DNA of 64,000 nt from Minisyncoccota bacterium (GCA_041917695.1 JAYRXE010000037.1:2155-66154); one strand, 5' to 3'. Shown: positions 30,262-59,759, numbered from the stretch's first letter. Program-made: numbers and translations. Notes: generated by a model not told the origin, from the letters alone.

Positions 30262-31752
30262 ATGAACCCTATACATCACGAAAAATTTGAATCCGAATCG
30301 AAGCGGCTTTTTCTCGACCCCGCGCGGAAAGCGGAAATCCGGGCGAACCTCGTTTCCTTCATGGAAAAGGCTCCCGTAAGGGATGAGGTTCCCAATCGTT
30401 ATATGAATATGGGCCAGGCCTTGTCCGGCCGGCTCGAGCGAATAATGTCGCTCAAAAAGAATGTATTACGTATCATGCCTATTGCACTTATTTTGGCGCT
30501 GATTTTGGGAGGGGGCGCCACCTTTGCGGCGGAGTCGGCCCTTCCGGGCGACACGCTGTATCCTGTTAAGGTCGAAGTGAACGAGAATGTCCGCGGGTGG
30601 TTTGCCGCGTCCGACGAAGCGAAAGCCAAGTGGGAATCGGAACTCGCCGAACGCCGGCTTGAAGAAGCTGAAAAACTGGCGGCTGACGGCCGCTTGGATG
30701 CGTCAGCGACTGCCGATTTGAAATCGCGTTTTTCGGAGCATTCGGCGGAAGTGAAGAGCCGGGTCGAGGTGATGGAATCGGCGGACGATAGCCGTCCTGC
30801 CGCGCTTTCCGTGAGCTCCGATTTTGACGCTAAGCTCCGCGCACACACCGATATCCTTACCGCTCTTTCGGTGAAAAAGACTGAAGTTGCGGATGACGTG
30901 AGGGATATCGTGGCGGTAGTGAACGCCGAAGCGAACGCCGTCGCTTCCGTGAAAGCGGATGCCGAGTCGGGCATTGCCCGCGGGAACGCTGAAGCCGAAG
31001 TGAAGATTCGCGCAGCGGCCGAAGCGCGCCGGAAAGCGGCAGAGCAGAAGATCGCTGAAGCGAGAAAACTCCTTTCCGCACCGCAGGTAGCCGATGTGGC
31101 GACCTACGCTGAAGCTGAAGCGAAAATCAAACTTGCCGATGAGCTCTATGGCCAGGGCGAGGGGTATTTCAAGGCTGAGGCGTATGGCAAGGCTTTCGTT
31201 TCTTTCCAGGAAGCCTTCGCCAACGCGGTGAAAGCGTGGACGGTCCTCCGAGGGAGCGCCGCGCTCCAGGTTTCGGTGGGAAGCGCGACGACGGTAAGTC
31301 CGGGTATTGCGCCGAATCCCAATCCCAACCAGGGGCAAAAGACCCCGCAGACGGTTGCTGAGGCGAAATACCGCGAGGCCGTTTCCACCATTGCGGAAAT
31401 CAGGACTTTCATTTCGGTCCGCCTGGGCGTTATGACGGAAGAGATGGCAAAACGCGTCGAGGCCCAGTTGGCGCTTGCCGACCGCTTAGTTGCGGAAGGG
31501 AAGTCCTACTTCAGCGCCGGTGCGTATGAGAAGGCTTCCGTAAGCTTTGACGGAGCCACCGAGGCGGCGAAGGCGGTCCATAAGATCCTCTATGGCGACG
31601 ACCCGCGCGTCCCTGCGGCGGGAAATCTCGTTCCTGTTCAAAAAACGAGTCCGTCCGGCGAGGTTGAGATAGAGTTCGAGGATTCCTTGGAATCCGGCAA
31701 GAACCGCTCAAGCGGCTCCGGCAGCGGGAGCGTCGAAGTGAAACTTCGGTAA
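30262..31752 (+). CDS. single-pass membrane protein with Ala-rich coiled-coil exodomain (candidate anti-sigma / DUF5667-like)
   Basis: Immediately downstream of the ECF sigma. It has a cytoplasmic N-terminus, one TM helix and a long A/E/K-rich periplasmic domain. Confidence 0.5.
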   Translation: MNPIHHEKFESESKRLFLDPARKAEIRANLVSFMEKAPVRDEVPNRYMNMGQALSGRLERIMSLKKNVLRIMPIALILALILGGGATFAAESALPGDTLYPVKVEVNENVRGWFAASDEAKAKWESELAERRLEEAEKLAADGRLDASATADLKSRFSEHSAEVKSRVEVMESADDSRPAALSVSSDFDAKLRAHTDILTALSVKKTEVADDVRDIVAVVNAEANAVASVKADAESGIARGNAEAEVKIRAAAEARRKAAEQKIAEARKLLSAPQVADVATYAEAEAKIKLADELYGQGEGYFKAEAYGKAFVSFQEAFANAVKAWTVLRGSAALQVSVGSATTVSPGIAPNPNPNQGQKTPQTVAEAKYREAVSTIAEIRTFISVRLGVMTEEMAKRVEAQLALADRLVAEGKSYFSAGAYEKASVSFDGATEAAKAVHKILYGDDPRVPAAGNLVPVQKTSPSGEVEIEFEDSLESGKNRSSGSGSGSVEVKLR

Positions 31753-31857
31753 TTCCCGCCCTCTTAAAATCCCCCTACGCGGGGGATTTTTATTTGACTC
31801 ATCCGCCGTTTTTCGGCGATAGTGAGAGCAGAATTTTAAACAGTTGAAAGGAGGCAT

Positions 31858-32250
31858 ATGAGCCATTTGTTGTATCTTTTGGCTTCCCGCGTTCCTACTC
31901 CCATCATAATTATCCGTTTGCGCGCACCTGAACCGCCTGACGCGCGCGAGGGCGAGGTTGAGGTGGGGAATCTTTCCGACCGTGAGAAAGAGCTCTATCG
32001 CATGGCCGAAGACCTCTTTTGGGACGCGCTTCGCTTAAAAGCCTTATATAAGGAAGAGCGAAGCAGGAAGTTGCGCGAACTTTTGCTTGCCGAATCGCAA
32101 TACCTTTGCGATGAGTGCATTCGCATGGAACAGGAGCTCTATAGCCGCATCCGCTTTAAATTTCCGAGCCCCTATTTCGCAGGCCAAGTGAGAATCCGCA
32201 AGGATTATAAGATCGTCCGGGAGAAAAAGGGGAGAAGGAATTATTTGTAA
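31858..32250 (+). CDS. hypothetical protein
   Basis: ORF with a GAAAGGAGGC RBS. Confidence 0.4.
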   Translation: MSHLLYLLASRVPTPIIIIRLRAPEPPDAREGEVEVGNLSDREKELYRMAEDLFWDALRLKALYKEERSRKLRELLLAESQYLCDECIRMEQELYSRIRFKFPSPYFAGQVRIRKDYKIVREKKGRRNYL

Positions 32251-32351
32251 AAAACCGCCAGATAAGGCGGTTTTGATTTTTTATCCTTAAATCTGTATCG
32301 TGGGTAGAGTTAAATTATAAATTTTTCCATAGCATAGAAAGGAGGCGGCGT

Positions 32352-32708
32352 ATGCCCTACGGAATGAGTCAGAAAGACGTCGATTATAATCAAAGGCTTG
32401 AAAAGCAGTTTCGGAAAAAGCGGGAGATGAAAAAACTTCTGGAAGACCCCGTGTATGGCGAAAAGCTTTTGAATATGCATTGGCAGGAGACTGAGCTTGG
32501 AACGATAAGCACGCGTTCATTGAACATCCTTATTTGGGCCAAGGGAACCAGGGCTCCGCTGAAAGATATTCTTACCCTTACCGAACACAGGCTTTTATCT
32601 TTCAGAAGCTGCGGAAAAAAGTCGGTGGCTGAAATCAATGAAAAGCTCAAAGAGATGGGGTTGCATTTAGGAATGCAATTACCGGAAGAAAAAAAGATCC
32701 CCACATGA
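32352..32708 (+). CDS. stand-alone RNA polymerase alpha-subunit C-terminal-domain-like (HhH) protein
   Basis: RSLNILIWAKG...LLSFRSCGKKSVAEINEKLKEMGLHLGMQL aligns with the alphaCTD consensus RSANCLK...[28 protein letters not shown]. Confidence 0.6.
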   Translation: MPYGMSQKDVDYNQRLEKQFRKKREMKKLLEDPVYGEKLLNMHWQETELGTISTRSLNILIWAKGTRAPLKDILTLTEHRLLSFRSCGKKSVAEINEKLKEMGLHLGMQLPEEKKIPT

Positions 32709-32728
32709 CGCGGGGATTTTTCTTTTTA

Positions 32729-32886
32729 CTGTGGAGATGGTGGGAATTTCACATCGCTCCGCTCTTTGGAACCCAGCGGTTCCAATACCTCCGCCACGGG
32801 GAAACTCTCGTTTCCCTGGCCCCTTTCCTAGTTCAACTCCATATCTCCGAAATCAAATTACCTCCCATTGGGAGGTAATTTGATTC
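32729..32886 (-). repeat. tmRNA 3'-flanking structured module ending in a copy of the tmRNA acceptor 3' strand
   Basis: ctgtggagatggtgggaatttcac at 32729-32752 duplicates the ssrA 3' end at 32886. The intervening sequence shares hairpins and motifs with the modules that follow tRNA-Pro and tRNA-Lys. Confidence 0.7.
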
Positions 32887-33218
32887 TGTGGAGATGGTGG
32901 GAGTTGAACCCACGTCCGATGAGGAGCGTCCATGCGATCTACGAGCGTAGTTTCTGATTGCTCAGAGGAACGATATTCCGAACTGGATTTCTCGCTTTCC
33001 CTTCTTTGTCCGGAGGGTCCGGAAAAGCCAGCCTAAGGTATTACACCGGATGCCTCCTATTAGGCATCAGAGTCCGATGTCCGGAGCGTTACGCCGCGAA
33101 GGCGAACGCCGGAACTGCAACTTTGTTGTTGTCAGTTAGTGTTTGTGGCCGGAGTACGAGCGTGCCGTCTCGGCCCGCACGCGTGAGCGCTTTCTTACCG
33201 TCGAAGCCCGACATCCCC
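32887..33218 (-). ncRNA. ssrA: tmRNA (ssrA)
   Basis: 5' GGGGAUGUCGGGCUUCGACGG pairs with 3' CAUCUCCA. The T-arm GGUUCAACUCCC is present. The tag ORF ends ...VAVPAFAFAA-UAA. The gene is adjacent to smpB. Confidence 0.88.
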
Positions 33219-33267
33219 TAAAACATTTTACTGCGTAAAATGTTCGGGCGATCACGCGTTGCGTGAT

Positions 33268-33543
33268 TTAGCCCTTGCCTATATTTCGTCTTTTAAGGAA
33301 CTCGCTTTTAAGCCTTTGCTTAAATCGGCCACCCCATAGGCTTTTCAGGAATCGCTCGCGATTGAAAGCTTCGGTTTTATCCAAAAACTTTTCAGAATGA
33401 ATCAGAGTTAGCGGGCGGCGATTGTGAGTTGCTTCGACAATTCCTTGTTCATGCGCCTTTAGTCGATGCTCAAGATTTGAAGTGCATCCCACATAAAGTT
33501 TTTCGTCTTTCTCACTGAAGAGAATATAAACGAAATATTCCAT
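33268..33543 (-). CDS. GIY-YIG domain nuclease (UPF0213/YhbQ-like), low-GC insertion between ssrA and smpB
   Basis: YFVYILFSEKDEKLYVGCTSNLEHRLKAH is a GIY-YIG motif. GC is much lower than the flanks. Confidence 0.75.
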   Translation of the reverse strand: MEYFVYILFSEKDEKLYVGCTSNLEHRLKAHEQGIVEATHNRRPLTLIHSEKFLDKTEAFNRERFLKSLWGGRFKQRLKSEFLKRRNIGKG

Positions 33544-33547
33544 AAAC

Positions 33548-33988
33548 CTATTTGTGAAACCTGCGGATTTCGCGTTCGGTTTCGCGCTTCTTGATCACCT
33601 CGCGCTTGTCGAACTGCTTTTTCCCGCGCCCGAGTCCAAGCTCAAGCTTCAGGAATCCGCGCTTATTGTTATAGAGCGAGACGGGGACGAGGGTCAAGCC
33701 GGTTTTCATTTTTTCAGCGAGGGTTTTCAGCTCTTTTTTACCGAGAAGGAGTTTCCGCGTCCGGTCCGGCTTGTGGGATTCGGGGACGTTTCCCGGCTGG
33801 AAGGGCTGGATCATGAGGCCGACCACGAAAGCCTCGCCGTTCCGGATGATGGCGTGCGAGCCCTGGAGGTTCGCCCGGCCCATTTTCACCGATTTCGCCT
33901 CAAGACCGGTCAAAACAACCCCCGCCTCGAGGGTGTCGAGTATCTCATAGTCGAATCTAGCTCTTTTATTGACGGCGTAGGGTTCCAT
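33548..33988 (-). CDS. smpB: SsrA-binding protein SmpB
   Basis: AVNKRARFDYEI...GLEAKSVKMGRANL. ATG chosen at MEPYAV. The ORF track extends to a TTG at 34018. Confidence 0.88.
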   Translation of the reverse strand: MEPYAVNKRARFDYEILDTLEAGVVLTGLEAKSVKMGRANLQGSHAIIRNGEAFVVGLMIQPFQPGNVPESHKPDRTRKLLLGKKELKTLAEKMKTGLTLVPVSLYNNKRGFLKLELGLGRGKKQFDKREVIKKRETEREIRRFHK

Positions 33989-34041
33989 ACGTAGCCTAAG
34001 GGTAGCATTTAATATCAATTTAAAAAAAGAAAGGAGGCCGT

Positions 34042-50281: not shown

Positions 50282-50893
50282 ATGGACGAACAAGCAAAAA
50301 AGACCCTTCTCATACTTTCCCTCTCGCTCGTAGGCATCGTGGTGGCGCTTTCCGCGCTCGCTTTCGGTCTTCCGTACATCCAAAAGCGGGCACCGCTCCC
50401 GACAGGCTTTTCAGAATCGCGCTCACGGGCGGCAGAGATCAGCCGCGATATCGTTTCGCTTTCGAACGAGACGAACGACAAGGTGAAGGCTCTGAGCGCG
50501 CTCGATCCGAAGAAGGATAAGGCGCAAGCCACCGCCCTCGTCGCCGATGCAAAGGCGAAGAACAATGAGGCGTATGCGAAAGCCGTTGACCTTTCGAAGG
50601 AATTGGAAGGCATGTCGAATTCGTTCAAAGGCATCAAATCCCTCGACCTTCAGCGCATCATGTATGACGGCATCGCCGTAGAGATCGCGCTCGTAACGGA
50701 ATTCATCCAATACACGAAAGATTTCAATGGCTTCTTGGAAGCCGTATCCGCCTTCCTTGCCAATCCGACACCGGAGCACAAGCTTGCCGTGCAGGCGGGG
50801 GAGTCGGCGGTGAACACCCGCGTGACGAACATCAACCGCTTAAACGACGAATTCTTAAAGCGGATGGACGAGTTCGAGAAGGCACTTAAGTAG
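50282..50893 (+). CDS. membrane-anchored or secreted coiled-coil hypothetical protein
   Basis: N-terminal TM or signal sequence LLILSLSLVGIVVALSALAFG. Confidence 0.45.
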   Translation: MDEQAKKTLLILSLSLVGIVVALSALAFGLPYIQKRAPLPTGFSESRSRAAEISRDIVSLSNETNDKVKALSALDPKKDKAQATALVADAKAKNNEAYAKAVDLSKELEGMSNSFKGIKSLDLQRIMYDGIAVEIALVTEFIQYTKDFNGFLEAVSAFLANPTPEHKLAVQAGESAVNTRVTNINRLNDEFLKRMDEFEKALK

Positions 50894-50977
50894 CGCCTTC
50901 TTCGTGTTTTTTGACTAAAGCCATTTTTAGTGGCATTTTTTGTTTAGTTATTTTTTTAAAAATAGAAGGAGGCATAC

Positions 50978-51301
50978 ATGCCAAACGACTGGTTTTTGCT
51001 CGTTATTGGAAATGAGACCACTACAACATGCATGGGAGGGCACACTGAAACCGTAACGCAGGTGCATGTGGCATACGGAACCGATAAAGCAGTGAGGGAT
51101 TCCTTTACCAAAAAAGCCATTGCATTGAGAGACAGAAACAAGCAAAGGAAGCGGATCACTTTCCACGCTTCTATTAAGAGCGTCATCATCAAACGGCTTA
51201 CCAGCAATGGGGAAACTCTCCCTGAAAAAGAAATGGAAGAATTTGTAAGGGCTGCCGTAACTATGGATCCTGCGAAACTAAAGAAAGCATTAGCTAGCTG
51301 A
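50978..51301 (+). CDS. hypothetical protein (AT-rich)
   Basis: ORF with an AGGAGG RBS and a terminator at about 51311-51338. Confidence 0.4.
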   Translation: MPNDWFLLVIGNETTTTCMGGHTETVTQVHVAYGTDKAVRDSFTKKAIALRDRNKQRKRITFHASIKSVIIKRLTSNGETLPEKEMEEFVRAAVTMDPAKLKKALAS

Positions 51302-51337
51302 TAAGATCCCAAACTCCGCGTATGCGGGGTTTTTTAT

Positions 51338-51669
51338 TGGGCGTAGAAATTTCACGTCGCGGGGCTGGGGAATTGAACAATTCGCCCTTTCCCGTTCAAT
51401 TCACTCCTAGTCCTAAAACCCCGATCTGAAATATCGGGGTTCGGACGAACAAATCCGCCTTCAGGCGGATTTGTTTTAGTCGGGCTGCTGGGAATTTCAC
51501 GTCGTCCCGCCGAAGGCGTGACTCCTTGAGAACCGAGGGTTCTCAACCGCCAGTTGGCGGTCTCTCCGACACGGAAGGGACACATCCGTTTCCCTTCCGA
51601 CCCATCCCTCGTTCAATTCCCTAATTCAACAAACGCAAACGCAGGCTGAATGCCTGCGTTTGTATTTAG
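51338..51669 (-). repeat. two tandem tRNA-3'-flanking structured modules (module 1 about 51480-51669, decayed module 2 about 51338-51479)
   Basis: Module 1 is about 90% identical, in inverted orientation, to 58660-58852 and ends in GACGTGAAATTCCCAGCAGCCCGA. Module 2 ends in CGTGAAATTTCTACGCCCA. Confidence 0.7.
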
Positions 51670-51740
51670 TCGGGCTGCTGGGAATTGAACCCAGTCTACC
51701 TGCTCCCAAAGCAGGCGTACTACCGGTATACGACAGCCCG
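51670..51740 (-). tRNA. tRNA-Pro (anticodon TGG)
   Basis: CGGGCTG...CAGCCCG-A. Anticodon loop TTTGGGA. Outside the anticodon arm it is identical to the tRNA-Pro at 58589. Confidence 0.85.
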
Positions 51741-51751
51741 ATTAATAAATG

Positions 51752-53866
51752 CTATTCCCTGTGCAGGGTCTTCGCAAACTCAGTGATGCGGCGTTTTATC
51801 TCCGGCACCGTGTCGAGGCGGGGGTCGGTGCGGAGAATCTCGTCCGCGTATTCCTTCGCGTGCTTCAAAAGGCGGGGATTCTGGAGCGCCGACATCGCCA
51901 AATCGGGGAAGCCCGATTGCGAGAGCCCGAAGAGCTCGCCCGGCCCCCGGTCTTTCAAATCATACTCGGCGAGTTCAAAACCGTTTTTTGCTTTCTCAAG
52001 ATATCGGAGCCGTTCCTGGGTTTTCTCGTCCTCCTTTTCGGTGAAGAGGAGGCAATGCGATTGGTGCATGCCTCTCCCTACGCGGCCGCGAAATTGGTAA
52101 AGCTGGGCGAGGCCGAAGCGGTCGGCGTCTTCAACCATCATGACGGTCGCGTTCGGGACGTCGATGCCGACCTCGATGACCGACGTAGAGACCAGGATGT
52201 CGATTTTTCGCGCGGAAAAGTCTCCCATCACTTTCTCTTTCTCCGCCGGCTTCATCTTCCCATGCAGCATGCCCACGCGAAGATCAGGGAAGGTTTTCTT
52301 TGCAAGCTTTTCGTACTCGAGCTTCACAGACTTCGCTTCAAGGGTCGCTTCCTCCTTTTCGGTGAGAGGAGCGGCTTCCGGAGGCTCGATGCGGGGACAA
52401 ATCACAAATGCCTGTCGGCCCGTCGCAATTTCTTTTTTGATGAATTCATATGCTGATTTCCGCTCATCCTTCGGTACGAGCCTCGTCTCAATCGGTTTGC
52501 GGTCTTTCGGCAGCTCGGTGATGAGTGAGAGATCAAGGTCTGCAAAAAGCACGAGGGACATCGTGCGGGGAATCGGCGTTGCGGACATCGAAAGGAAATG
52601 CGGCACGACTTTGCCGGTTTCAGCTTCGAGAAGCTTGGCGCGCTGGGAAACGCCGAAGCGGTGCTGTTCGTCCACGACGGCGAGCACGAGGTTTTTGAAC
52701 GCGCTCCGGCGGTTCAAGAGGGCGTGGGTGCCCACGACGATCTTCACCGCGCCTTTTTTGATTTCCTTTTCGAGCGCGGGCTTTGTCATCACGGTTTCAA
52801 GCCCTGCGCCGTAGAAGACGCGCGCTTCCGAGGCGGTGAGGAGCGCGATACCCGTTTCAAGTTCGCCGAAAAGGCGGGTGAGATTTCCGTAATGCTGGCG
52901 TGCGAGGATTTCCGTCGGCGCCATCATCGCGGCCTGGAAGCCTTTTTGGGCGGCAAGTACGGCGGCAAGCGCTGCAACGATGGTCTTTCCGCTTCCCACG
53001 TCTCCCTGCAGCAGGCGGTGCATGGGGAAGCCTCTTCCCAAGTCTTTTACCGTTTCCCACAAGGCGTGCTTTTGCGATTCCGTGAGCTCGAATGGCACGA
53101 GCTTCAAGAGTTCTTTGATCTCCTCTGTCTCTATCGGAAGCGGGAACGCTTTCTTCGCCTCTATCCTTTTTCGCTCAAGTCCCATATGGACGGAAAGCGT
53201 GAGGAGCTCCTCAAAGGCGAATCGCGCTTTTGCATGATAGGCAGCGGCAAGATTTTCGGGAAAATGGATGGCGCGCAGCGCATCTTCCCGTCCCGGCAAA
53301 TTTTCCTTTTCGAGCATCTCCACCGGCAGGGTTTCGGGTACGCGCACGTGGTTCAAGATCGGCTGAACGATGAAGCGGATGCCGCGGGAAGTCAGTCCCT
53401 TCGTTTCGCGGTAGACGGGGACGATGCGCGCGGTGTGCTTAGTGGATTCGTTTTCAGAAGGCTCGTAGAGTGGGTTGGTGAGCTGGATGCGCCCGTCTTT
53501 TTCGGTGACGCGCCCGGCGAAATTCGCGTGCGCTCCCTTGGGAAGGGATTTCGCCACATACGATTGGTTGAACCATACGATGGAGAGCTTGCCGGTGCCG
53601 TCCGAGATCCGCGCTTCCGTGATCGTCATGCGCCTCCGCCAGATCTTCCGGAGCTCGATCTTTTCAACGATGCCGCTTACCGTACAGGACGTTCCGGCCG
53701 TGAGTTCGGCAATGGGCGTGATTCGCGAAAAGTCCTCATAGCGATAGGGGAAGTGGAAGAAAAGGTCTTTCACGGTCTCGACCCCCAGTTTTTTGAGCCG
53801 CTCGGCAAAATAGCCGCGCATGGATTTCAGCTGTGCAATGGGAGTTTCGAGGGAGATGAGCGGCAT
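51752..53866 (-). CDS. recG: ATP-dependent DNA helicase RecG
   Basis: Wedge domain, Walker A GDVGSGKT, DEQHRFG and helicase C motifs. The product is 704 aa. Confidence 0.92.
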   Translation of the reverse strand: MPLISLETPIAQLKSMRGYFAERLKKLGVETVKDLFFHFPYRYEDFSRITPIAELTAGTSCTVSGIVEKIELRKIWRRRMTITEARISDGTGKLSIVWFNQSYVAKSLPKGAHANFAGRVTEKDGRIQLTNPLYEPSENESTKHTARIVPVYRETKGLTSRGIRFIVQPILNHVRVPETLPVEMLEKENLPGREDALRAIHFPENLAAAYHAKARFAFEELLTLSVHMGLERKRIEAKKAFPLPIETEEIKELLKLVPFELTESQKHALWETVKDLGRGFPMHRLLQGDVGSGKTIVAALAAVLAAQKGFQAAMMAPTEILARQHYGNLTRLFGELETGIALLTASEARVFYGAGLETVMTKPALEKEIKKGAVKIVVGTHALLNRRSAFKNLVLAVVDEQHRFGVSQRAKLLEAETGKVVPHFLSMSATPIPRTMSLVLFADLDLSLITELPKDRKPIETRLVPKDERKSAYEFIKKEIATGRQAFVICPRIEPPEAAPLTEKEEATLEAKSVKLEYEKLAKKTFPDLRVGMLHGKMKPAEKEKVMGDFSARKIDILVSTSVIEVGIDVPNATVMMVEDADRFGLAQLYQFRGRVGRGMHQSHCLLFTEKEDEKTQERLRYLEKAKNGFELAEYDLKDRGPGELFGLSQSGFPDLAMSALQNPRLLKHAKEYADEILRTDPRLDTVPEIKRRITEFAKTLHRE

Positions 53867-54860: not shown

Positions 54861-55268
54861 GTGTTCGGTCTCAATAAGAAAGGGGCGGTGAAAGTCCTTG
54901 ATCCAAAGGCGGATTATTCAAATCTTTGGCATTTTAATGACGATTTTCACGTTATTAAGGTTTTGGATATTTCAGAAAGATTCGAATCGAAAGCGGGAGA
55001 AATCATTCTTCTTTATGGAGCGCGGGGAAGGGACACGGAAGCGTTTTTTCTAAAATTCGGTACGGGATCTACTTATTGTCCGTTAACTTCTCAATTCGAT
55101 TATTATTTGGCAGAAAGGCTATATTGGCTTGTAGATATTCTCGGCTCGGATTCTTCTTCTTTTTATGATTTTATTCAATTTCACCGCCCGCCGACGGAGA
55201 GATGGGTGCATGCCATAAGTCCTTTTTTCGGCATCACGGACAGCACGTACATGAAAAGTTACATTTAA
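54861..55268 (+). CDS. hypothetical protein (AT-rich)
   Basis: AAAGGAGG RBS and a GTG start. Confidence 0.4.
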   Translation: MFGLNKKGAVKVLDPKADYSNLWHFNDDFHVIKVLDISERFESKAGEIILLYGARGRDTEAFFLKFGTGSTYCPLTSQFDYYLAERLYWLVDILGSDSSSFYDFIQFHRPPTERWVHAISPFFGITDSTYMKSYI

Positions 55269-55363
55269 ACGCCCTCCGGGGCGTTTTTATTGCGAATTTT
55301 CCGGGGTGTGCTATAAAAAGGCCACAGTAAACCGTTTAACAAATTAATCCGAGAAAGGTACAG

Positions 55364-55621
55364 GTGACTCTGATGGCACGCATCAAAATTTCTTACCGCC
55401 ACATCGTGCGCGGCATTCTCACGATGATTTGCGGCATTGCGCTCTTTGTTTCGCTGGAACTGGCGCAAATCGCTTCATGCATGACGACACTGGAAGATAC
55501 TCATTTTTCAAATCCGCACCAGGTTGCCCCGATCGAAAGGATTGTTCCCAACGTTCAGGGACATGTTTTTCCGAAACCGACCGGGACACGGATAGAATTG
55601 CATGCACGCAGTAATTGCTGA
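55364..55621 (+). CDS. small hypothetical membrane protein
   Basis: One TM helix. Confidence 0.3.
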   Translation: MTLMARIKISYRHIVRGILTMICGIALFVSLELAQIASCMTTLEDTHFSNPHQVAPIERIVPNVQGHVFPKPTGTRIELHARSNC

Positions 55622-55823: not shown

Positions 55824-55963
55824 CACCGTGCATTTTATTCCAGAGCTCGAACCCGTATGGGGTCGGGAGCGGCGGAACGCTCCCGCGGAGGAATGCATGC
55901 CTGCGTAGGCAGGCATTGAAAACCGTGGGTTTTCAACTCCGTGAGATTGCCCTAGACGGGGCA
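55824..55963 (+). repeat. tRNA-Lys 3'-flanking structured module ending in a copy of the tRNA-Lys 3' end
   Basis: It contains hairpin gcatgcctgcgtaggcaggcat and hairpin TTGAAAACCgtgGGTTTTCAA, then CCGTGAGATTGCCCTAGACGGGGCACAC, which repeats the tRNA 3' end at 55811-55826. Confidence 0.7.
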
Positions 55964-58588: not shown

Positions 58589-58659
58589 CGGGCTGTCGTA
58601 TACCGGTAGTACGCACGCTTCGGGTGCGTGTAGACTGGGTTCAATTCCCAGCAGCCCGA
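58589..58659 (+). tRNA. tRNA-Pro (anticodon CGG)
   Basis: CGGGCTG...CAGCCCG-A. Anticodon loop TTCGGGT. Starts 4 nt after the dut stop. Confidence 0.85.
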
Positions 58660-58852
58660 CTAAATACAAACGCAGGCTGAATGCCTGCGTTTGTGTTTGT
58701 TGAATTAGGGAATTGAACGAGGGATGGGTCGGAAGGGAAACGGATGTGTCCCTTCCGTGTCGGAGAGACCGCCAGCCGGCGGTTGAGAACCGAGGGTTCT
58801 CAAGGAGTCCCGCCTTTGGCGGGACGACGTGAAATTCCCAGCAGCCCGACCA
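58660..58852 (+). repeat. tRNA-Pro 3'-flanking structured module (four hairpins) ending in GACGTGAAATTCCCAGCAGCCCGACCA
   Basis: Hairpins: aaacgcaggctgaatgcctgcgttt, ggaagggaaacggatgtgtcccttcc, ccgccagccggcgg, ttgagaaccgagggttctcaa and cccgcctttggcggg. Then comes a T-loop-like motif and a copy of the acceptor 3' strand. An inverted copy is at 51480-51669. Confidence 0.75.
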
Positions 58853-58967: not shown

Positions 58968-59759
58968 GTGGAAAACCTATTTTCCAAGCTTTTCAAGGAT
59001 TCAAAGATCATTATCGGAATGTTGCATATCTTGAACGGCAATAAATCCGTTGATGAGATCACCGAAGATGTTTTGAACGATTTGTACATCTATAAAGGAC
59101 GGGTGCACGGCGCCATCGTTGAGAATTACGGATGGGGAGGCGGGAATTCGTACCGCGCAAACCCGCGCGTTGAAGAAATCCTCACGAAGGTTACGAAAGC
59201 GGCAGTTACCGCAGGCGGTTCGAATTTTGTCATCGGCGTGAACGTGCTTCCGAATGATTACAAAATGGCTTTCCGTATCGCGCGGAACGCCGGCGCGGAA
59301 TTCATACAGCTTGATTATGTGGCAGGGGCGTACGAAGGAAGCGATTTGACCGAATGGGATGATTTCATGAAAGAACGCGAGCGTTGCGCCGATATCGCCG
59401 TATTAGGCGGAATATACCCCAAGTACTACCGCCCTACGAAGGAGTCTCCTTCATTCATACGCTCTGCTTTTGACGCAATGGACCGCGCGGACGCAATCGT
59501 GATAACCGGAGAAAAGACCGGCGGCGAGGCGAATCAGAAGGATATTGAAACACTGAACCGCTATCCCGAACTGAAACCTTTCCCGAAAATAATCGGGAGC
59601 GGAATGACCGCTACGAACCTCCGCCTGCTTGATGGCGTGCGGGGCGCCATCGTGGGAAGTTATTTCAAGACCGATGGGAAGGTTAATTTCGGGAGCCGCG
59701 TTGAAGAAGGCCGCGTAGAAAAATTCATGGAAGCGCTTACCAGGCGTTTCACGCTCTAA
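58968..59759 (+). CDS. BtpA/SgcQ family TIM-barrel protein
   Basis: IIIGMLHIL...GAIVENYG is a family signature. The product is 263 aa. Confidence 0.6.
   Translation: MENLFSKLFKDSKIIIGMLHILNGNKSVDEITEDVLNDLYIYKGRVHGAIVENYGWGGGNSYRANPRVEEILTKVTKAAVTAGGSNFVIGVNVLPNDYKMAFRIARNAGAEFIQLDYVAGAYEGSDLTEWDDFMKERERCADIAVLGGIYPKYYRPTKESPSFIRSAFDAMDRADAIVITGEKTGGEANQKDIETLNRYPELKPFPKIIGSGMTATNLRLLDGVRGAIVGSYFKTDGKVNFGSRVEEGRVEKFMEALTRRFTL

Follow-up and report, generated by a model that had tools for sequence, protein, structure and literature searches.

A folded, non-coding module beside the tmRNA gene of a patescibacterial genome and its relatives at conserved gene ends

Integrase-bearing islands and prophages integrate at the 3' ends of tRNA and tmRNA genes. 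In the 64,000-nt stretch of DNA analysed here (the window), the 3' end of the tmRNA gene (ssrA) occurs a second time a short distance downstream, and the original prediction, made from the sequence alone, read the interval as a miniature module inserted at this locus. This raises the question of what the module is, where the second gene end came from and how the module spreads. The source organism is a member of Patescibacteria; SmpB of the window is 60-69% identical to SmpB of Jorgensen-, Colwell- and Brennerbacteria, with the best relative at 69%.

The two tmRNA ends and the sequence between them

The 17-mer CTGTGGAGATGGTGGGA is found exactly twice on the plus strand with an offset of 157 nt (Table 1), and no match appeared in 100 shuffles of the window, so that the duplication of the tmRNA 3' end 157 bp downstream can be taken as real. 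The prediction had treated a 24-mer (32729-32752) as the repeated ssrA terminus. Its first 17 nt are indeed identical, but the remaining AATTTCAC is the complement of the T-loop look-alike GTGAAATT. Copy 1 is the working tmRNA end; it comprises the last T-loop base, the 3' strand of the T-stem, the 3' strand of the acceptor and ACAG. The tmRNA gene is intact despite the insert, according to both ARAGORN and Rfam.

Table 1. Positions of the features at the ssrA locus and of the related modules in the window, with the basis of each.
Feature	Position	Strand	Basis or remark
GIY-YIG gene, 91 aa	33268-33543	-	Pfam E 1.7e-14; between smpB and ssrA
tmRNA (ssrA) gene	32886-33218	-	ARAGORN; Rfam RF00023, 122 bits; 3' third is the copied part
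Direct-repeat copy 1	32886-32902	-	exact 17-mer; 0 expected by chance
16-bp hairpin (tip), AATCAAATTACCTCCC-AAT-GGGAGGTAATTTGATT	32851-32885	-	fold; between tmRNA and module
GGAGAT, outer part of inverted copy	32843-32848	-	pairs with acceptor 3' strand ATCTCC in folds
Inverted copy (anti), GGAGTTGAAC	32831-32840	-	reverse complement of tmRNA GTTCAACTCC
Purine-rich junction, TAGGAAAGGGG (family consensus GGGAAAGGGG)	32820-32830	-	conserved columns in module alignment and 164 cores
P1 hairpin, CCAGGGAAAC-GAGA-GTTTCCCCGTGG	32794-32819	-	covariation AU:17 vs GC:16 at one pair
P3 hairpin, TTGGAACC-GCTG-GGTTCCAA	32766-32785	-	covariation AU:23/GC:10 and GC:18/AU:15
AGAGCGGAGCGAT	32753-32765	-	region of a variable fourth hairpin in other family members (alignment)
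T-loop look-alike, GTGAAATT	32745-32752	-	G53 T54, GA replacing T55 C56, then R57 A58 T T
Direct-repeat copy 2	32729-32745	-	exact 17-mer; displaced or spare tmRNA 3' end
Terminator-like hairpin	32697-32717	-	terminator scan; directly past copy 2; common to convergent gene 32352-32708
Sister module 3' of tRNA-Pro(tgg)	51479-51628	-	cmsearch E 3e-17; inverted 11-mer, direct 18-mer
Degenerate, internally deleted second module	51340-51440	-	downstream of the tRNA-Pro(tgg) module; GTGAATTGAAC, GGGAAAGGG ... GTGAAATT, then TCTACGCCCA
Sister module 3' of tRNA-Lys(ctt)	55835-55962	+	cmsearch E 4.6e-18
Sister module 3' of tRNA-Pro(cgg)	58701-58850	+	cmsearch E 2.7e-18

All of the sub-features that had been listed (the hairpins, GGAGTTGAAC, GTGAAATT and the repeat) were found on the minus strand. 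The first hairpin, previously read as a terminator, was not called by the terminator scan; the hairpin past copy 2 was. This tip hairpin resembles the plain hairpin that lies 3' of ssrA in a relative with an empty locus (L129). The inverted T-loop copy and the T-loop nature of GTGAAATT were absent from the earlier description; the tmRNA segment that is copied in inverted form, GTTCAACTCC, consists of the T-loop and two T-stem bases. No ORF is present within the 157 nt and no promoter-like site was found at the module. A 118-aa ORF on the plus strand (32352-32708) converges on the module; it has a weak match to the RNA polymerase alpha C-terminal domain (E 6e-7) and is far shorter than RpoA.

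Whether the segment belongs to the ssrA terminator or was inserted was addressed by comparing six ssrA loci: the window, four related smpB-ssrA loci found through SmpB (L129-L132) and a locus from Jorgensenbacteria (L077). In L129, L131 and L132 the tmRNA is followed by a plain hairpin, with a single copy of the gene end and no module. In contrast, a module is present in L130, complete with a look-alike of its own, GTAAAACT, and with the tmRNA end duplicated; the covariance model described below detects this module with E 2e-20 from outside its training set. The first hairpin of L130 resembles the plain hairpin of L129, so that it may be either resident or imported. A module with a duplicated tmRNA end is present in L077 too, where the hairpins past the two copies differ by pairing-preserving changes. 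As the module is found in three of the six loci and missing from the other three, it is an insertion and not part of the ssrA terminator. At ssrA it is always accompanied by the duplicated end, and none of the relatives compared has the same sequence as a conserved terminator beside a single end. That the region spanning about 32729-32885 belongs to the family described here, as one of its insertion modules, we consider highly probable (roughly 0.85-0.9).

The locus has been targeted more than once, as had been proposed. The GIY-YIG gene is real, and it is absent from this position in the four relatives, in which ssrA starts 3-57 nt past smpB; it therefore represents a separate insertion, and the locus has been hit at least twice. 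Small GIY-YIG ORFs adjoin tRNA genes in 13 other loci of the family. They seemed enriched near modules, a link that did not hold: such ORFs accompany 8 of 93 tRNA genes with a module versus 10 of 143 without (p = 0.8), and one is near only 1 of 91 non-tRNA modules. The GIY-YIG genes are linked to tRNA genes generally, not to the modules.

A module family at tRNA, tmRNA and protein-gene ends

The homology of the ssrA module to segments past tRNA-Pro and tRNA-Lys, part of the original prediction, was recovered by a covariance model built from 35 modules, which finds four full copies in the window (at tmRNA, tRNA-Lys and two tRNA-Pro genes; E 7e-20 to 3e-17). Half of the eight tRNA-type genes in the window are followed by an inverted and a direct copy of their own 3' third, and the other four have neither. 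The inverted T-loop copies are GGGAATTGAAC past both tRNA-Pro genes and GCTCGAACC past tRNA-Lys. The motif GTGARATT followed by the repeated gene end is present at all four modules, and a fifth GTGARATT, at 52878, lies in no module. The degenerate module past the tRNA-Pro(tgg) one has kept the inverted T-loop copy, GGGAAAGGG and GTGAAATT, has lost P1-P3 and ends in a different 'gene end', TCTACGCCCA. Partial second units or decayed copies were also seen in L015, L016, L045, L077 and L188.

Two scans extended the family beyond the window. A pattern scan of species-representative genomes returned at least 119 loci, of which at least about 40 were true modules as judged by nhmmer, and a metagenome scan keyed on P1 alone returned at least 120 loci with at least 137 cores. 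Together they give at least about 170 relatives, most of them patescibacterial; those of the genome scan come from Paceibacterota, Minisyncoccia, Morani-, Uhr-, Taylor-, Nomura- and Jorgensenbacteria and Saccharibacteria. The module is non-coding and about 120-150 nt in size, with a conserved core of about 100 nt. Some metagenome-assembled genomes labelled Bdellovibrionales (L017, L034, L045, L054, L075) and one labelled Gammaproteobacteria (L032) contain cores almost identical to patescibacterial ones; the modules in genomes labelled as other phyla reflect either horizontal spread or mis-binned contigs. At the gathering score, Rfam matched only tmRNA and tRNA in the window and 19 loci, a scan of 32600-33000 by E-value gave just weak, chance-level matches in the module, and full-text searching of the literature found no description of the element. 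The family is uncatalogued, in that it has neither an Rfam match nor a literature description.

Roughly half of the members lie 3' of tRNA or tmRNA genes, and the rest abut the ends of conserved protein genes. Among the matches listed, a tRNA or tmRNA gene is found 9-68 nt upstream on the same strand in 31 of 40 modules on genome contigs, and within 120 nt upstream of 58 of the 137 metagenome cores, with no tRNA for another 58. One more tRNA target, with a probable long intron, is that of L034. Nearly all isotypes are used (Tyr, Glu, His, Ser, Thr, Leu, Gln, Gly, Lys, Phe, Asp, Ala, Arg and Pro, in addition to tmRNA), and at tRNAs the module is always oriented along the tRNA strand with repeats of 14-24 nt. 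The protein targets include the 5' end of fusA and the 3' ends of the L18 gene and clpP, and members also occur inside ribosomal-protein operons. Many of the non-tRNA members have direct repeats of 17 to about 100 nt covering the end of the neighbouring gene, which, with the shorter repeats at tRNAs, gives a span of 14 to about 100 nt for the family. What is repeated is either the 3' end of a gene on the same strand or the first codons of a gene on the opposite strand; at fusA and other 5' ends the core is accordingly antisense to the gene. In each protein-gene case detailed (e.g. L175, L191, L225, L152) the working gene reads into the repeat copy upstream of the core, and in several such members a short inverted repeat closes the core, e.g. 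GCAAATCCTGC/GCAGGATTTGC in L194.

In one genome, L049 (tRNA-Ser) and L080 (tRNA-Ala) have near-identical cores, unrelated hairpins and fully different copies of the gene end, a combination that needs either retargeting or gene conversion between cores. A separate subfamily of cores (L140 with three copies, L141, L145, L146, L147 and L176) has conserved flanks, ...AACATCCCATATC before and ...GTATTACCACT after the core, and stops right at the ATG of genes whose N-termini read as ribosomal proteins S12, S14, L15 and S21, and of further genes; no direct repeat was found for these members. In a tRNA subfamily (L179, L201) the spare T-loop copy is split instead of mutated (GGTTC - TAGCGAAGCG - GATCC), with a GCGAAGC mini-hairpin inserted between T-loop positions 56 and 57.

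The fold, the second gene end and the mode of spread

The core has a conserved fold. Across P1 and P3, 97.3% of the cells are paired and 10 pairs are changed on both sides, a level reached in none of 500 shuffles, and about 95% or more of the P1 pairs are Watson-Crick across 164 distinct cores among the matches listed. The inverted T-loop copy recurs at tRNA-Pro, tRNA-Lys and 27 further loci. It can pair with the look-alike and spare copy in a stem of about 13 positions that always has a mismatch at 55-56, and folding also gives an alternative pairing with the real gene end that yields a long hairpin. The R of the look-alike (fifth base of GTGARATT) equals position 57 of the neighbouring tRNA in all of the 31 modules. 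On its left side the repeat has a precise boundary, at the T-loop. Pairing of this kind is limited to its inner 13 positions, and the length kept is 14-18 nt and up to 100 nt.

Two other readings of these elements were rejected. A tRNA-like minihelix does not fit, since the inverted copy is a true reverse complement including the T-loop (21/21 in L021, 20/21 in L002) and not the 5' strands of the tRNA itself. A small ORF in the core (a GGAGG resembling a Shine-Dalgarno sequence, then TTG) loses its frame across members with different hairpin lengths when read along the alignment. The core, the inverted T-loop copy and the look-alike with its matched position 57 resemble features that serve recognition by an enzyme or a guide, and for this reason a recombinase supplied in trans and an RNA guide have to be weighed below. 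Our guess is that, in a single-stranded form (DNA or RNA), the core and the inverted copy would pair with the spare copy as a closing stem, which might be needed for establishment or tolerance of the module.

The origin of the spare copy is best seen at the protein genes, where the two copies can be compared in the reading frame. In nine such members, each set against 2000 simulations of random substitution, the copies show 96 nucleotide differences, spread over 73 codons of which 60 are synonymous. In L175, at the 5' end of fusA, the encoded peptide is MSRDYPLEKVRNFGIV in both copies, with 16/16 residues identical despite 10 nucleotide differences, and in L212, L191 and L140 the copies differ by conservative replacements, as orthologues do. 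The observed amino-acid identity was reached in none of the 2000 simulations for seven of the nine (L191, P = 0.0145; L225, P = 0.035). Because the differences are mainly synonymous, the copies are orthologous gene ends from diverged lineages and not a target duplicated in place, and each has been under selection as the working gene end in a different lineage. Either the module must have brought one gene end with it, or recombination must have left the donor and recipient versions side by side; a simple target-site duplication is contradicted by this divergence. Differences in the encoded CCA at tRNAs (spare copy only in about three loci, gene copy only in about three) and the hairpin changes in L077 point the same way. 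The CCA differences run in both directions with no consistent signal, and an origin of the spare copy by reverse transcription of a mature tRNA was rejected for that reason.

A search for an enzyme was made among 1352 ORFs within 2.5 kb of about 170 cores (at least about 170 copies being listed), which were clustered. No transposase, integrase or reverse transcriptase is recurrent among them; the clusters are housekeeping families only (EF-G, S12, L13, S9, RpoA, PrfB and others) and one six-locus cluster that, from its sequence, looks like a LAGLIDADG homing endonuclease. Pfam showed no recombinase among the 10 ORFs flanking the modules of the window (30262-34018, 50282-51312, 54861-55621, 58968-59759), and genes of the IS110 type, tnpB or iscB adjoin none of the copies among the window ORFs and the 1352 neighbours. 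The module likewise had no HEARO or other Rfam match. In one locus (L079, 2651-3660) about 1 kb separates the module from tRNA-Gln and encodes ORFs of 178 and 73 aa, neither of which has the look of a recombinase; the stretch is bounded by an 11-nt direct repeat, TCGAGACGCGT, and so looks like a secondary insertion into the spacer. The neighbour clusters and this cargo gave no candidate for an autonomous parent element. A phage origin was also rejected, as two pattern scans found no family member among IMG/VR viral contigs.

The explanation that we favour, to which we give about an even chance, is that the modules spread by a recombination-based swap of gene ends. A non-autonomous module would be carried from genome to genome by DNA that undergoes recombination within a conserved gene end, either by Campbell-type recombination, by a double crossover or by homology-facilitated recombination following DNA uptake. 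One copy of the gene end would stay joined to the gene, which is left intact (at ssrA, copy 1 with its hairpin), and the second would be left on the far side beside the resident terminator. In this way the module could be transferred into diverged genomes with unconserved intergenic DNA and with no transposase of its own, since the spare copy, being conserved sequence, provides conserved DNA on both flanks. Such recombination would account for a target range made up of the most conserved genes, for repeats of variable length, and for the patchy presence, the partial and decayed copies and the missing enzyme gene. We infer the recombination route, the identity of the imported copy and the role of DNA uptake as the vehicle from these patterns. 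Several points speak against the proposal: the 14-24 nt shared at tRNAs are short for ordinary homologous recombination, plain recombination fails to explain why the folded core is kept or why every tRNA-type module has an inverted T-loop copy and a look-alike matched at position 57, and the near-identical cores of L049 and L080 need retargeting or gene conversion.

These kept structures would suit a trans-acting site-specific recombinase, for instance a tyrosine integrase or Xer, by analogy with CTXphi attP(+) and integron attC. The excised circle would consist of gene end, hairpin, inverted copy, core and T-loop look-alike, and its single strand would fold as a dumbbell whose central stem mimics the double-stranded 3' third of a tRNA gene except for the 2-nt mismatch at 55-56; a single strand exchange right of position 56 would yield the observed junctions. 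Both pairings of the inverted copy, that with the look-alike and spare copy and that with the real tRNA end, agree with this, as do the precise left boundary at the T-loop and the existence of tandem and partial units, and hairpin covariation would be expected if a single-stranded form works. However, none of the at least about 170 copies has a recombinase nearby, no member was found in IMG/VR viral contigs, the targets (all tRNA isotypes, fusA, L18, clpP and others) are too diverse for one site-specific enzyme, repeat lengths vary from 14 to about 100 nt, and the ortholog-type divergence of the copies is not predicted. Integration of this kind seems possible but unlikely.

The target-matched segments around the core could also be read as guides. 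In its broadest form, which we regard as speculative and rather improbable, the core would be the scaffold of a programmable, nucleic-acid-guided recombination system without a protein of its own, in which the inverted and direct copies read both strands of the target and a host or trans-acting enzyme uses the fold, as RNA or single-stranded DNA, to swap gene ends. If true, this would be a new class of guide-bearing mobile element for the tRNA, tmRNA and core translation genes of Patescibacteria.

A stricter form, drawn by analogy with the bridge RNA or seekRNA of IS110/IS1111 or with the TnpB omega RNA and its 3' guide, would have the module transcribed, the core acting as a protein-binding scaffold, the top strand of the target paired to the 5' inverted copy, the bottom strand to the 3' direct copy, and the enzyme encoded elsewhere. 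The arrangement of target-matched segments around a conserved scaffold of about 100 nt is as expected, the 3' segment of 16-18 nt has a typical guide length, and the R of GTGARATT covaries both with tRNA position 57 and with the complementary base in the inverted copy (31/31). The inverted and direct copies of the target overlap and pair with each other. The ratio of G.U to A.C pairs in P1 also favours a transcript of the tRNA-sense strand (31 vs 9), but overall this signal is weak (45 vs 34), and we therefore did not use it to assign a strand; nor was there a promoter-like site. Neither an IS110, TnpB or IscB gene near any copy nor an Rfam match has been found, and a guide would also match the tRNA gene next to its own module. 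The diversity of targets and repeat lengths counts against it as well, and guided cut-and-paste does not predict copies that diverge as orthologs do. We find RNA-guided insertion of this type improbable.

An immobile host RNA is improbable in our view. The module would then be a 3'-trailer or intergenic RNA with a role in processing, stability or termination, or a small RNA beside highly expressed genes, and its ends would match the neighbouring gene because closure of the fold needs pairing. The conserved and covarying fold, the constant orientation at tRNAs, the location beside highly expressed genes (ribosomal-protein operons, fusA) and the terminator directly past the second copy suit such a role. 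On the other hand, the module is patchy among relatives, and in the window half of the eight tRNA-type genes lack it. Some copies are truncated, degenerate or orphaned, and the core is antisense at fusA and other gene 5' ends. Pairing of 13 positions would not explain why longer repeats are kept, and evolution in place would not produce spare copies with ortholog-type divergence. Patchy presence, orphan and truncated copies, the antisense core and the foreign spare copies make the host-RNA reading less likely. Finally, the notion that the repeats are leftover attL/attR sites of a larger island or prophage whose body was deleted, prompted by the direct repeats around the segment and by tmRNA and tRNA 3' ends being classic integration sites, is very unlikely, because one and the same core of about 100 nt, with its covarying hairpins, is found in at least about 170 places that show no remnants of genes, and the only locus with cargo (the 1 kb in L079) shows no recombinase-like ORF. 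The original view of a miniature insertion at ssrA is supported, with the correction that it is not the remnant of a classical integrase island but a member of a large family that also occupies protein-gene ends.

Comparison with known systems

With integrase-bearing islands and prophages the module shares the t(m)RNA 3' target from the T-loop on, the intact gene, the flanking direct repeats and the tandem or decayed copies. It differs in its size of about 140 nt, in lacking an integrase or any other gene, in its covarying folded core and extra inverted T-loop copy, and in being located also at protein-gene ends with repeats of up to about 100 nt.

Insertions with long, variable target duplications and no transposase are a documented class (PMC2853133), in which the repeats align to a single-copy target in genomes without the insert and often overlap the 3' end of a gene; the mechanism was left unresolved there. 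The modules resemble that class in having no transposase, long and variable direct repeats and a single copy of the end in the empty ssrA loci. In contrast, the members of the class have kilobases of protein-gene cargo and each case is unique, whereas the module is tiny, conserved, multi-copy and non-coding, and its two repeat copies are of different lineage origin.

MITEs and REPINs are likewise small, non-coding, intergenic, hairpin-forming and present in many copies per genome, and the module is comparable to a MITE in being shorter than 300 nt and non-coding, with four copies in 64 kb and at least about 170 in the scans. It has no element-specific terminal inverted repeats, as the pair of inverted copy and spare copy is derived from the target and changes with each tRNA, and no short target duplication of fixed length, as the repeats span 14 to about 100 nt and their copies come from different lineages. 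The ends of the module are copies of the local target, and neither a parent transposase nor a RAYT was found.

Homing introns, inteins, free-standing endonucleases and homology-facilitated illegitimate recombination also involve spread by conserved flanks and the most conserved genes, but the module has no endonuclease gene, and the gene end is duplicated and the gene not interrupted. CTXphi attP(+), integron attC and the bridge, seek and omega RNAs have in common with the module a structured single strand of about 100-190 nt and target-matched pairing; for the module, folding predicts a potential hairpin. It differs from these recombination sites and guide RNAs in having no Xer, IntI, IS110 or TnpB partner, no Rfam match and far longer repeats.

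If the recombination-based swap holds, reduced genomes would carry hundreds of copies of a protein-less element that avoids harm by rebuilding the gene end at its landing site, and tRNA T-arms, EF-G N-termini and ribosomal protein ends, all of them sequences of extreme conservation, would act as portable homology between lineages. This would offer a testable route by which DNA spreads horizontally among organisms believed to rely on its uptake, a mechanism for the unexplained class of insertions with long target duplications, and a conserved structured nucleic acid for experiments. Spare tRNA and gene ends can mislead annotation as pseudo-starts and tRNA fragments, and the modules mark recombination history at essential genes.

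Two further observations concern the target tRNA genes. In L034 (about 1780-2019) the target tRNA has an insertion of about 200 nt past the region of the anticodon arm, probably an intron, and neither ARAGORN nor Rfam called a tRNA there. In the window, tRNA-Pro(tgg) (51669-51740, minus strand) and tRNA-Pro(cgg) (58589-58660, plus strand) are identical except for the anticodon stem-loop, and the identity extends across the hairpin and the module and ends right past the spare copy, so that either the entire unit was duplicated or one element entered twice independently. The two modules are near-identical, with two hairpin loops reverse-complemented between them (ATTCA vs TGAAT, and CTC vs GAG; 51631-51667 vs 58662-58698, and 51526-51546 vs 58783-58803), inversions of the kind made by template switching in palindromes.
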